Shown in pieces: positions 5,220-11,103 of a stretch of 24,846 nucleotides of DNA. The notes beneath the pieces were generated by a model. It did no database searches, was not told the DNA's origin, and saw only the letters and a list, made by a program, of their open reading frames with translations. The DNA is from a virus. The translations under genes were made by a program, and so were the position numbers. How positions within the stretch are numbered: the first letter of the stretch is position 1; every line of letters begins with the position of its first letter. The stretch is taken from UHGV virus genome UHGV-1599541. One strand, 5' to 3'.

Positions 5220-5759
5220 CTACCACCAACTGCTAGCTTTCTTCTCTCTGGCTTTTCCTTCGCTTTGCAGTAAATCTTTACTTCCTGTAGAAATATTTCT
5301 ATTTGCATCAGCCTCAGACTGAATTACATCTGTCTTAGCTGCTCTCTCCTTCAACTCCTGCTCTATAAAATCGTTTTCTCGCTGGACACGAGCCGCTTTT
5401 GCTTGCAGTTCGAGTTTCATGCTTTCGAGTTGCAGCTTGCGAAGCTCATCCTCATAAGCTTGATCTCGTTTCTTGTCATTTGCTAGCTCGGCTTCTCGTT
5501 TCGCTCTACGTTCATTTTCTGCAGCAACGCGCTGTTTTTCGCGTGCAGCAGCGGCAGATGCTGCTTTTTCTCTTCTAACACGTTCAGCTTGTGCTTGTTG
5601 GCGAATAAGTTCTTTTCTGGCATCCTCAGCTTGCTGCTCTTTAGCTCGCCCTTCATTTTCCGCTTGAGCAATAGCAGCAATTTGACTTTGCAACGAGTTA
5701 GCCAAGGCAGTGCCTGCACTAAACGTAGAAAAGATTAGAAATAAAATAATTTTATTCAT
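5220..5759 (-). CDS. Secreted charged coiled-coil protein (179 aa) with cleavable signal peptide; candidate superinfection-exclusion (Sim-like) factor
   Basis: N-terminus MNKIILFLIFSTFSAGTALA then NSLQ (Ala-x-Ala cleavage site); remainder is A/E/R/K/Q-rich with heptad-like charge pattern (e.g. QAQAERVRREKAASAAAAREKQRVAAENERRAKREAELA). 3-bp spacing to upstream lipoprotein gene. Confidence 0.6.
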   Translation of the reverse strand: MNKIILFLIFSTFSAGTALANSLQSQIAAIAQAENEGRAKEQQAEDARKELIRQQAQAERVRREKAASAAAAREKQRVAAENERRAKREAELANDKKRDQAYEDELRKLQLESMKLELQAKAARVQRENDFIEQELKERAAKTDVIQSEADANRNISTGSKDLLQSEGKAREKKASSWW

Positions 5760-5762
5760 AAA

Positions 5763-6284
5763 TTATTTCTTTTCTGGACAAGTAGCATTTGGCTGAATTC
5801 GGGTTTCATTATCTTTAGTTGAAATGAGCACAGCAAGCCCTGTTGTAAACTGGCATGCTTTACCAACCTGAGTAGAAGTAAACACCTTAGTGCCTTCTTT
5901 ATAAGTCAGTGAAACCCCCTCAACAATTGTTTTATCACTAACCAAAGAACCAGCTGCTGCACCAAGAGCTGCGCCACCAGTACCACCAGCTACAGCACCC
6001 AAAGTCGATGTACCTTTAACATTATAACCGGCGACCCCACCAGCAACAGCCCCCAGTACCGCACCAAATGTCTGTGCTGCTTCTTTATTAGCTTTATTGT
6101 CAACTTTTACTTTAGCTGGAAGCACAGAAATAATATTGACAGTCTTTGTTTCCTGCTTCGAATTCAATTGAGCGGTATCATAAACATCGGCTGCATAATC
6201 AGCACCGTTTGATTGGCAACCAGAAAGAAGGAATGCAGAAACAACCAGAGAGCACAAAACAGATTTTTTAGACATAAGAATCAT
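5763..6284 (-). CDS. SlyB/Pcp-like glycine-zipper outer-membrane lipoprotein (173 aa)
   Basis: Lipobox LLSGC after a hydrophobic leader; Gly/Ala zipper GAVLGAVAGGVAGYNVKGTSTLGAVAGGTGGAALGAAAGS; C-terminal GVSLTYKEG..VFTSTQVG resembles the SlyB C-terminus. Start may be Met4 (MSKKS...). Confidence 0.7.
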   Translation of the reverse strand: MILMSKKSVLCSLVVSAFLLSGCQSNGADYAADVYDTAQLNSKQETKTVNIISVLPAKVKVDNKANKEAAQTFGAVLGAVAGGVAGYNVKGTSTLGAVAGGTGGAALGAAAGSLVSDKTIVEGVSLTYKEGTKVFTSTQVGKACQFTTGLAVLISTKDNETRIQPNATCPEKK

Positions 6285-6566
6285 CCAAGAAAAACAAAAA
6301 ACGGCGAGAAGTTACCACGAGAACGGAAAGCAAACAAGAATACTCCTATTGACTTATATCAATTAATCAACTTTTTATAAGCTATCCCTAACTTATTGGG
6401 TATAGCTAAAGAGTCAGAGACAAGTTCACCACCTGCATTATTTCTTAAGTTAATAGTTTACTGCTAACTTAATTTATGTATCGACTATTGATATCCATCT
6501 TAAAGTTACAATATCCCTCTGTATTATTTTTAATCACAAATAATATTTTCTTTTGTATGAGATTTG

Positions 6567-6583
6567 CCTGCTCTAATAAATTT
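6567..6583 (+). promoter_or_regulatory. C1 repressor operator-like 17-mer (Op51-like) upstream of c4/icd/ant
   Basis: CCTGCTCTAATAAATTT matches the asymmetric P1 C1 operator consensus ATTGCTCTAATAAATTT at 15/17; near-identical copies at 8231-8247 and 22930-22946. Confidence 0.6.
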
Positions 6584-6769
6584 GTATTTTTAAGTCGAAA
6601 ATGCTATCTTTTCGCTTCATATTGACCTTTTAATCGTTCAGGCTTATAGTTCCGCCGTCGTAGCAAATTCTACGACCGGGTTTAGCAGCCTGAATACTCA
6701 TGCGGACAACCGCAGATATCCGATATTGCGGTATTTTTGTGTCCGTAAACCACGTTACGCCCAAATTAT

Positions 6770-6846
6770 GGTGGGGCGTGATGGGGAGGCTTCGGCCTGC
6801 TGGTTTCATGAGTACCAGTCTGCTAACCCCGTCACGTCCTGCCACC
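6770..6846 (+). ncRNA. c4: c4-type antisense repressor RNA (boundaries approximate)
   Basis: Stem 6800-6804/6814-6818 with 9-nt loop TTCATGAGT (6805-6813) complementary to ACTCATGAG at 6879-6887, which covers the icd SD. Adjacent CTGCTAA (6820-6826) is complementary to GTTTAGCAGC, present upstream (6680-6689) and downstream (6848-6857). No long ORF on this strand; a GGC-TTCG-GCC tetraloop hairpin lies at 6788-6797. Confidence 0.5.
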
Positions 6847-6896
6847 CGTTTAGCAGCGGGTAGCAGGTTGTTAATTCAACTCATGAGGCCGTAACT

Positions 6897-7118
6897 ATGG
6901 TTAATGCCAATCCTTGCGCACGCCCAGAATTCATCTGGCGTTTCTATTCCTGTAAAAAACACCACTATCACTTCGTTATCGCAGCAACTGAAGACGAAGC
7001 ACGCTCTCAATTGCCTGATGGCCCCTGCATTTTTACTGCCCGTTTTTCTACTAACTCGCGCAATTCACTTAGTTACTGGAACCTCCCCTTCTCTGCCGAC
7101 GCTCAGGAGGGTTTATGA
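6897..7118 (+). CDS. icd: Icd-like small protein (73 aa), translationally coupled to ant
   Basis: ORF track; SD GAGG 6885-6888; stop overlaps the ant ATG (ATGA at 7115-7118); position between c4 and ant matches the immI layout. Confidence 0.65.
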   Translation: MVNANPCARPEFIWRFYSCKKHHYHFVIAATEDEARSQLPDGPCIFTARFSTNSRNSLSYWNLPFSADAQEGL

Positions 7119-8152
7119 AAAAACCTCTCGTCACCCGGAATGAAATAGCCGAAGCGATCGCCCTGCATACTGCCTGTATGCCGACACGGGAGATCCCCGG
7201 CGCAATTGCCAACTATTTCATGATAACCAGACGTTTTTATACCCGAACAGATAAGGCTGTGATCAACAGGCTACTGATAGCCGAGATCAGGGATTATTTG
7301 ATTGAACAAGGACGTCTACGTTACGCAACGGTGGCAGCAGAAATGAGAAAGGAGGCACATAGAATGACCGGTAATAATTTAAATGTTGAAAAACCAGCAC
7401 CTGTTGCTTCAGCTACGCCAGCACCAGCCGTGAATATCATCCCCAACACCGGAGACACAATCGACAGCCTGACACTGTTAAAGATGGTCAATGAAGCGCG
7501 TAAGTTATGTGGGGAACCAGAGGTTCGGAACAACAAATTCATCGAAAAAATACTCGATGAGCTTGATGGTGAGCACTACACAAAAAGTGTAGTGGAAAAA
7601 ATGAACAAAACATCAATGCTTGTCATAACCATGACTTTCAAACAAGCCCTGCGAGTCGCCGCGCGCGAGTCAAAAGCGGTCCGCCGTTCGCTGATCGACA
7701 AACTGGAAGAATTACAGCAGGCAAACTCACCTACCCCATCGATCCCCCAGACATTACCAGAAGCCCTACGCCTGGCTGCCGAGTTAGCAGAACAGAAAAT
7801 GCAGTTGGAACAACAGCTGGTGGCCGCAGCCCCTAAAGTCGATTTTGCCGACCGGGTATCAGTGGCCAATGGAATCCTGATCGGGAACTTTGCAAAGGTC
7901 GTTGGACTTAAGCAAAACGCCCTTTTCTCATGGTTGCGCCAGAACGGCATTCTCATGGCTTTTGGTGCGCGCAAAAACGTACCGCGCCAACAGTACATCA
8001 ACGCCGGGTATTTCACGGTGAAAGAAGTGGTACTGGATGATGAAAATGGCTACCAGATACGGCTGACGCCCCAATTAACGGGTAAAGGCCAGCAGTGGTT
8101 AACTCGCAAGCTACTTGATGCTGGTTTGTTAAAACCAGTAGCAATAGGTTAA
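7115..8152 (+). CDS. ant: Antirepressor Ant1 (345 aa) with C-terminal KilA-C/ANT domain; nested in-frame Ant2 start at 7364
   Basis: SD CAGGAGGG before ATG 7115. Internal in-frame ATG at 7364 is preceded by AAAGGAGG (7348-7355). C-terminal 125 aa share about 65 percent identity with the KilA C-terminus. Confidence 0.8.
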   Translation: MKKPLVTRNEIAEAIALHTACMPTREIPGAIANYFMITRRFYTRTDKAVINRLLIAEIRDYLIEQGRLRYATVAAEMRKEAHRMTGNNLNVEKPAPVASATPAPAVNIIPNTGDTIDSLTLLKMVNEARKLCGEPEVRNNKFIEKILDELDGEHYTKSVVEKMNKTSMLVITMTFKQALRVAARESKAVRRSLIDKLEELQQANSPTPSIPQTLPEALRLAAELAEQKMQLEQQLVAAAPKVDFADRVSVANGILIGNFAKVVGLKQNALFSWLRQNGILMAFGARKNVPRQQYINAGYFTVKEVVLDDENGYQIRLTPQLTGKGQQWLTRKLLDAGLLKPVAIG

Positions 8153-10288: not shown

Positions 10289-10470
10289 TACAATCGTTGC
10301 GGGTGCTTGAGGCTATCTGCTTCAGGCATTACCCGAAAAGCAGATAGAAGAAAGCCCCAGATAACATTACGCGTCCTGCAAGACGCTTAACATTAATCTG
10401 AGGCCATATCTATGCTTAGCATACGTAGATTAACCCTCTCCCATTTTAAGGAGCAAGGAATTTTTTACTG

Positions 10471-11103
10471 CTATGCCGCATTTCCAATTATGGATTCAGC
10501 GACCAGAACAACCCCATGCTTACTTCGATCTGGGTGTTCACTCCATATCTCGGATTCAGGAATACTTACCCCGTCATAGCAAACACGTTCGCCGTCAAAC
10601 GGGTAATACTGAGCGGCATCGGTGTCGAGGATAAACACTTTTAGCTCGGAAGAGCGACGGGCGATGTGTTGCCAAAGAGCTTTTCCACCTTCGTATTGCT
10701 CATTATCACTGAGCAAAACAACACCAGCCTTTGAGGCTACGGTTTCGTAAACAAAAGTAGCTAAACCGACATCCCGGACAGTTCCATCAACCACGATACC
10801 TTCAATCTGGGCAACATCGCTATCCTCCCAGAACTTCCTTACCAGTACGCCTTCAAGCTGCGGGCGACGTTGAAGTTCAAGAGTAGCGACAACCTTATGC
10901 CGCATATCACCATCGATAACAGAAGGCGCAGCCTCTATTACAGCTGCAAATGGGGTTTTGGAATCCCATATAACCTGGTAAAGCACACCCTGGATGGTAA
11001 CTCCGTCCAGGATCGAAAATCGACGAGCGACAGTACCCGGGGAGTACGACATTGGAATCACAGCCATTTTAGAGTCCCCCTTTAACAGTACAGGCACAAA
11101 CAT
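10471..11103 (-). CDS. Hypothetical morphogenesis-operon protein (210 aa)
   Basis: ORF track; last gene of the minus-strand operon; the real start may be the internal Met (MAVIPMS...). Confidence 0.5.
   Translation of the reverse strand: MFVPVLLKGDSKMAVIPMSYSPGTVARRFSILDGVTIQGVLYQVIWDSKTPFAAVIEAAPSVIDGDMRHKVVATLELQRRPQLEGVLVRKFWEDSDVAQIEGIVVDGTVRDVGLATFVYETVASKAGVVLLSDNEQYEGGKALWQHIARRSSELKVFILDTDAAQYYPFDGERVCYDGVSIPESEIWSEHPDRSKHGVVLVAESIIGNAA

Follow-up and report, generated by a model that had tools for sequence, protein, structure and literature searches.

The immI locus of UHGV-1599541

The virus genome UHGV-1599541 was analysed as a single stretch of 24,846 nucleotides (nt), which is called the window in this work. 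The region under study, around 6560-7120, begins with a putative C1 repressor operator and two putative promoters, and continues with two short boxes (a1 and b1), the sequence of a small RNA (c4), a second pair of boxes (a2 and b2), and the genes icd and ant, after which kilA and repL are found. The preliminary description of this DNA, made from the sequence alone, had proposed an antisense RNA switch acting on icd-ant and had suggested RNA folding and a covariance-model search as ways to examine it. The results presented below agree with this proposal, and the locus is almost certainly the immunity switch, immI, of a P1-like phage-plasmid, where the c4 antisense RNA would block the translation of icd-ant.

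The Rfam covariance scan of the window gave three matches above the gathering score. Among them, the C4 antisense RNA model (RF01695) was matched in full (model positions 1-87) at 6764-6849 (+), with 72.1 bits versus a gathering score of 45 and E = 1.7e-12. Just upstream, the c4-a1b1 model (RF03163, "a1, b1 targets of C4 antisense RNA") was matched at 6644-6696 (+), with 58.3 bits versus a gathering score of 46.7 and E = 1.4e-12. The organization around these matches is that of immI, with an operator, two promoters, c4, icd, ant, kilA, and repL in this order. The RF03163 leader forms two hairpins and places a1 and b1 5' of c4, and the RF01695 match comes together with a closing stem around two hairpins that present a b' loop and an a' junction. 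Finally, a2 and b2 are located 3' of c4 on the same strand, with b2 on the ribosome-binding site of the first cistron.

Concerning the overall relationship, the whole window is ~96% identical to P1-like plasmids, in which the annotated order is tail genes, icd, ant, kilA, repL, and then parA/parB/repA. The 561-nt region of the locus is 93-96% identical to P1, P7, SJ46, RCS47, and many Escherichia coli plasmids. In phage P1 (NC_005856; c4 at 48343-48419) the order is the same as in the window: Oc4, P2c4, P1c4, a1, b1, c4, a2, b2, icd, ant1/2, kilA, and repL. From the C1 operator to ant2, both sequences are colinear, without insertions or deletions and with 45 mismatches in 803 nt, so each P1 feature could be transferred to the window. 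In fact, all the features from Oc4 to ant1/2 that are annotated in P1 and P7 map onto it. Identity with P1 over the region is ~94%; the promoters are identical, the c4 scaffold differs at only 8 positions, and the operator is identical at 15 of 17 positions (CCTGCTCTAATAAATTT in the window and AATGCTCTAATAAATTT in P1). Furthermore, P1c4 was the sole sigma-70-like site found by an independent promoter scan, with 10 of 12 matches.

The proteins are also those expected for this operon. Icd is 96% identical to its P1 counterpart, and the product of ant1, the next gene, carries the Pfam ANT/KilAC domain (E = 1.3e-30). It is followed by KilA, which combines KilA-N and KilAC domains. The stop codon of icd and the start codon of ant1 overlap as ATGA (7115-7118), and the icd Shine-Dalgarno sequence, GAGG at 6885-6888, lies 8 nt 5' of the icd ATG (6897) and is overlapped by b2.

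The c4 fold and its complementary boxes

The 86-nt segment 6764-6849 folds with a predicted energy of -45.9 kcal/mol (z = -5.36), a stability that none of 200 shuffled sequences reached, and its minimum-energy structure is the same as the centroid structure. The predicted shape is a long closing stem around two hairpins, that is, three helices. The nucleotides 6805-6813 form the 9-nt loop of the second hairpin and CTGCTAA remains as a 7-nt unpaired junction strand, so the fold leaves unpaired exactly the bases that are complementary to the boxes. A tRNA or tmRNA was considered as another candidate for this region and rejected, as ARAGORN finds none in 6400-7000.

Direct reading of the sequence confirms the pairings that had been claimed, and all the quoted strings are found where they had been placed. 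The loop TTCATGAGT at 6805-6813 and ACTCATGAG at 6879-6887 form nine antiparallel pairs, eight of them Watson-Crick and one U-G, with a predicted duplex energy of -11.9 kcal/mol for b' and b2, and the target includes part of the icd Shine-Dalgarno sequence described above. CTGCTAA (6820-6826) is complementary to TTAGCAG, which makes up 7 of the 10 bases of GTTTAGCAGC, found at 6680-6689 and again at 6848-6857. The duplication of this 10-mer had been recognized before. However, the upstream copy of the loop target, ACTCATG at 6696-6702, had been omitted, and both boxes are therefore duplicated.

The arrangement of these boxes is far from what is expected at random. Within 205 nt there are three matches to the composite motif TTAGCAG-N(5-25)-ACTCATG: the two on the + strand are the targets, and the one on the - strand corresponds to the c4 loops. 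The number expected for the whole window is 0.01. Likewise, GTTTAGCAGC has two copies in the window versus 0.06 expected. These values exclude a chance origin of the boxes.

Covariation between c4 and its targets

Relatives of the locus were gathered by searching for exact copies of the conserved 5' half of c4, which gave at least 120 IMG/VR loci, and reference and plasmid loci were added. Covariation was counted on an alignment of 46 distinct sequences for four intermolecular helices. The b'-b2 helix has nine pairs, six of them with double-sided changes, and b'-b1 has seven pairs, also with six; the helices a'-a2 and a'-a1 have seven pairs each, with two double-sided pairs in both cases. This amounts to eight double-sided pairs per target set. 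In all four helices, 100% of the cells are paired and there are zero one-sided changes. As a control, sliding the partners by 1 to 3 columns lowered the share of paired cells to 33-49%, and the observed covariation score was matched by none of 500 shuffles.

The same pattern can be seen in a five-way alignment of the window with P1, P7, SJ46, and D6. The scaffold is conserved, and the differences are concentrated in the four target boxes and in the two c4 elements that pair with them, b' and a', each change in a c4 loop or strand being mirrored in both target copies. Regarding the predicted strength of these contacts, cognate loop-b2 duplexes range from -11 to -12 kcal/mol and non-cognate ones from -0.9 to -8.7 kcal/mol. 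The perfect compensatory variation in the 46 relatives supports the pairing of the loop with its targets.

This variation also bears on whether the region could encode a small c4 repressor protein, a reading that is hardly conceivable now. An open reading frame of 64 codons does cross the element in the window (6700-6894, +), from an ATG inside b1 to a stop codon 2 nt before the icd ATG, and c4 was first annotated in this way, since the old P1 record X15639 has a 'c4: CDS' annotation. Nevertheless, just 14 of the 46 relatives have both a start codon and a frame that stays open as far as the same stop. In 26 of them the length of the segment is not a multiple of three, which shifts the frame, and ACG occupies the start position in seven. 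The changes compensate one another in the RNA and are not codon-like. The protein-coding reading is refuted because the frame is not conserved, and c4 is established as an RNA in the literature (PMC5320573).

Another reading would be that the boxes work at the level of DNA, for instance as inverted or direct repeats for protein binding or recombination, and not as RNA pairing partners. Their layout of one inverted and two direct copies within 205 bp would fit such sites, but this explanation is very improbable. All 46 sequences have a U-G wobble as the first b'-b2 pair, which is fine in RNA and would be a mismatch in a DNA inverted repeat. Moreover, the stable RNA fold leaves precisely the complementary bases unpaired, in its loop and junction, one of the boxes overlaps a ribosome-binding site, and two RNA covariance models match the region.

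Two of the surveyed loci deserve mention. L045 (IMGVR_UViG_2565956613_000015), located ~130-400 nt from a contig end, is the sole surveyed locus with a mismatch between c4 and its downstream target. It has an AUUCGUG loop and the cognate b1, and its b2 is a P1-type GUUAGU, surrounded by flanks that are otherwise of the AUUCGUG type. Recombination may have produced this locus, in which case its icd operon could not be repressed, or two co-resident plasmids may have been merged in the assembly. L065 (IMGVR_UViG_3300010935_000281, 488-737, -) is a divergent c4 relative, with the a' strand CGACUAA and matching a1/a2 boxes UUAGUCG. It presents a different 11-nt loop, and the box that matches this loop is on the ribosome-binding site of an unrelated downstream gene. 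According to this layout, the design with two boxes and duplicated targets reaches beyond the P1 group.

Features of the operon and proposed mechanism

The coordinates of the features are displayed in Table 1.

Table 1. Location of the immI features in the window and basis of each assignment.
Feature	Position	Strand	Basis
C1 repressor operator Oc4 (former Op51)	6567..6583	+	Colinear with the P1-annotated operator
Promoter P2c4 (former P51a), overlapped by the operator	6582..6610	+	-35 and -10 same as P1-annotated; activity presumed by homology
Promoter P1c4 (former P51b): TTGACC, 17-nt spacer, TATAGT	6622..6650	+	Same as P1-annotated
c4-a1b1 leader motif: hairpin 6657-6676, then a small hairpin with a1 in its loop	6644..6696	+	RF03163
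a1 box TTAGCAG, upstream target copy for a'	6682..6688	+	P1 'putative a1 target site'; pairing in 46 relatives
b1 box ACTCATG, upstream copy of the loop target	6696..6702 (P1 annotation transferred: 6696-6703)	+	P1 b1; pairing in 46 relatives
Mature c4, 77 nt (GGUGGGG...GCCACC)	6770..6846	+	Ends predicted from the colinear P1 misc_RNA c4
b' specificity loop UUCAUGAGU, 9-nt hairpin loop	6805..6813	+	Fold; complementary to b1 and b2
a' unpaired junction CUGCUAA	6820..6826	+	Fold; complementary to a1 and a2
a2 box TTAGCAG, downstream target in the icd leader	6850..6856	+	P1 'target site a2'; pairing in 46 relatives
b2 box ACTCATGAG, downstream target	6879..6887 (P1 annotation transferred: 6879-6886)	+	P1 'target site b2'; pairing in 46 relatives
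icd, 73 amino acids, first cistron of the operon	6897..7118	+	Open reading frame; 96% identical to P1 Icd
ant1, 345 amino acids, in-frame ant2 start at 7364	7115..8152	+	Open reading frame; colinear with P1 ant1/ant2

In the proposed mechanism, transcription would start at ~6657 from the constitutive promoter (6622-6650), with a contribution of the adjoining upstream C1-controlled promoter, and the transcript would contain a1, b1, c4, a2, b2, icd, and ant1/ant2 in this order. The c4 segment would fold into a tRNA-like structure of three helices and would be excised as a 77-nt RNA (6770-6846), whose 5' end would be generated by RNase P. Then, a' (CUGCUAA) would pair with a2 (6850-6856) and b' (UUCAUGAGU) with b2 (6879-6887) on a transcript of the same kind. 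The duplex with b2 would mask the icd Shine-Dalgarno sequence and leave icd untranslated. The translation of ant would be coupled to that of icd through the ATGA overlap, and an untranslated icd would also permit premature termination. In this situation no antirepressor would be made, and the C1 repressor would keep the prophage lysogenic. Biere, Citron and Schuster reportedly observed in 1992 that blocking icd translation also stops ant expression, by translational coupling together with Rho-dependent polarity.

The window has sequence features related to processing, with GGU at 6770 and a predicted 3' end that reads GCCACC; both ends are colinear with those of the mature P1 RNA. C4 has been described as an RNA of 77 +/- 1 nt that is processed by RNase P at a GGW motif (PMC5320573). 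In P1 and P7 it is transcribed together with icd and ant, b' covers the ribosome-binding site, and a' contributes to specificity; differences at a few bases are enough for the heteroimmunity between both phages (PMC5320573, PMC12197685, PMC8198154, PMC6906374).

Specificity of the c4 allele

The core of the b' loop in the window is CAUGAGUA, with ACUCAUG targets, and is unlike that of P1 (CACUAACG), P7 (CACAAUCG), and SJ46/D6 (CGUAAGUG). It should be noted that, with this target, an AUG of the b2 box (6883-6885) falls within the Shine-Dalgarno region of icd.

P1 differs from the window in both pairing elements, since its a' strand is CUGUCAA versus CUGCUAA, and b1, b2, a1, and a2 all show the matching changes. 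When the loop of either element is combined with the b2 of the other, the predicted energy is just -1.6 to -2.9 kcal/mol. P7 (AF503408), the classical heteroimmune partner of P1, is 94.4% identical to the window over 6560-7120 and shares with it the a' strand CUGCUAA, the a1/a2 boxes, and the context of upstream lipoprotein genes. On the other hand, its b' loop is paired with GAUUGUG targets, versus ACUCAUG in the window.

Among the types listed, the nearest loop lineage is that of Salmonella phage SJ46, E. coli phage D6, and the 'ACAAGUG' type (L054, L108), which have the b2 flank (U/A)UCAAC in common with the window. The a' strand of SJ46 is CUGCUAA, as in the window, and that of D6 is CUGUCAA, as in P1. 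The loops of SJ46/D6 and of the ACAAGUG group, CGUAAGUG and CACAAGUG, differ from CAUGAGUA by transitions only. These are two transitions in the paired core and one at the loop-closing base, and they are compensated in b1 and b2. Differences of this kind are compatible with G-U intermediates that could link the loop types.

At least seven b' loop types and at least two a' types were found among the surveyed loci, in almost all combinations. The a' alleles CUGCUAA and CUGUCAA were each seen with five of the b' types, of which there are at least seven, whereas the b' type of the window and the ACAAGUG type each appear with one a' allele only, among the loci listed (L005-L128). The reassortment of b' and a' indicates either frequent recombination between elements that are ~10 nt apart or repeated convergent change.

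The b' allele of the window is rare. An exact search for its loop found it in two of 5,426 complete E. coli genomes, of which 568 carry a c4 locus, in one of 72,556 PLSDB plasmids, and in one gut contig among metagenomes, and there was no exact match in IMG/VR or in GTDB (one genome per species). An identical c4, together with identical a1, b1, a2, and b2, is present in the E. coli plasmid p24AR0070B (NZ_CP195366) and the gut metagenome contig OWOO01000658. The former is 98.2% identical to the window over 6560-7120. A 48-nt stretch of c4 is also matched exactly in pEC361_3 (NZ_AP027414), where the module lies in a D6-like backbone beside a Rha-family gene and not ant. The records of p24AR0070B, pEC361_3, and OWOO01000658 have different flanks and carry no annotation of the c4 RNA.

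Since this rare b' allele comes with matching b1 and b2, the window element is predicted to have an immunity specificity of its own. It should be insensitive to the c4 RNAs of P1, P7, SJ46, and D6 and unable to control their targets. We infer this heteroimmunity from the work on P1 and P7 and from the predicted energies of cognate versus non-cognate duplexes. The closest cross-pairing is that of the window c4 loop with an ACAAGUG-type b2, for which -8.7 kcal/mol with two G-U pairs is predicted; the reverse combination gives -4.3 kcal/mol.

Some points weigh against the reading of the locus as a working immI switch with its own specificity. The expression and processing of the c4 element of the window, as well as the repression it would exert, are read across by homology only. 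The c4 stems are almost invariant in the 46 relatives and the alignment gives no stem covariation, so that the fold is supported by the Rfam model and by the z-score of its energy. Regarding specificity, the predicted pairing of -8.7 kcal/mol means that orthogonality to every other type is not assured. Finally, the survey of specificity types, which is incomplete, covers ~125 loci, and the counts of types are lower bounds.

Possible role of the upstream boxes

The covariation of a1 and b1 with c4 is as strict as that of a2 and b2, and for this reason the upstream boxes are clearly under selection to match c4, with the same constraint as the downstream ones. The P1 record labels the a1 target site only as "putative", and the covariation described here goes further.

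How these boxes act is less evident. The preliminary description held that the upstream copy can pair with c4 within its own precursor. In one reading, a1 and b1 would act in cis, pairing with a' and b' in the unprocessed precursor and holding c4 in an inactive or processing-incompetent state; the alternative is that they are a target or decoy in trans. The action in cis is a tentative option, possible but rather doubtful. It is made plausible by the covariation of a1 and b1, which is no less strict than that of a2 and b2, and also by the fold of the window precursor (6657-6905), where the minimum-energy structure (-105.3 kcal/mol) contains the helices a1:a' and b1:b', of seven pairs each, and the structure with the native c4 enforced reaches -104.5 kcal/mol. 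However, 43 of the 46 relatives favour the native c4 fold, with a margin of 0.7 to 7 kcal/mol, and a competitive cis conformer is found only in three sequences, those with the window allele. For this allele, the difference in favour of the cis conformer (-0.8 to -0.2 kcal/mol) does not exceed the error of the energy model. Furthermore, covariation cannot separate pairing in cis from pairing in trans, and loop-loop (pseudoknotted) contacts in cis, with c4 kept folded, lie outside the folding model used.

A conserved refolding switch of the precursor, with nested a1:a' and b1:b' helices, was considered and rejected, as the native fold wins in 43/46 sequences. Since the cis conformer is competitive for one allele only, such a switch is not a conserved prediction.

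The loop of the window has another particular feature, the 6-nt palindrome UCAUGA, which it alone holds among the at least seven loop types, and the loop and its target share the 7-mer UCAUGAG. The predicted c4-c4 self-duplex of this loop is the strongest, with -7.4 kcal/mol, and the six other types range from +1.5 to -4.6 kcal/mol. Because of this palindrome, loop-loop dimers of c4 are conceivable. A more speculative and improbable proposal is that a1 and b1 are not a relic but a functional, co-evolving cis mask or decoy that sets the level of free c4, and that the window allele perhaps combines c4 dimers with a near-bistable precursor. If this were true, the allele would limit its own antisense action, and its repression would have a different set-point.

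Neighbouring elements

Directly 5' of the c4 promoters, where P1 has the simABC genes, the window carries two genes for secreted or lipoprotein-like products (5220-6284, -), as in P7 and SJ46. For one of them, the homologue in a related plasmid carries a DUF5384 family annotation. The second encodes 173 amino acids and shows a weak TraT-like match under the Pfam cut-off.

Just 3' of repL, at 10301-10475 (+), Rfam detected a sok/hok-leader RNA (RF01794) with 97 bits. No Hok-like open reading frame was evident by eye after this element, and an opposite-strand open reading frame of 210 amino acids abuts it at 10471. The element may be a truncated hok/sok addiction module.

Implications for P1-like phage-plasmids

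The workings of the c4/icd/ant switch have been known since the early 1990s. It is a textbook system, with C4 already included in Rfam and in the GenBank annotation of P1, and its presence in the window is known biology that carries little mechanistic weight. What the window adds is a rare specificity allele and a comparative data set. In this regard, the survey of specificity types could help to predict the superinfection compatibility of P1-like resistance plasmids.

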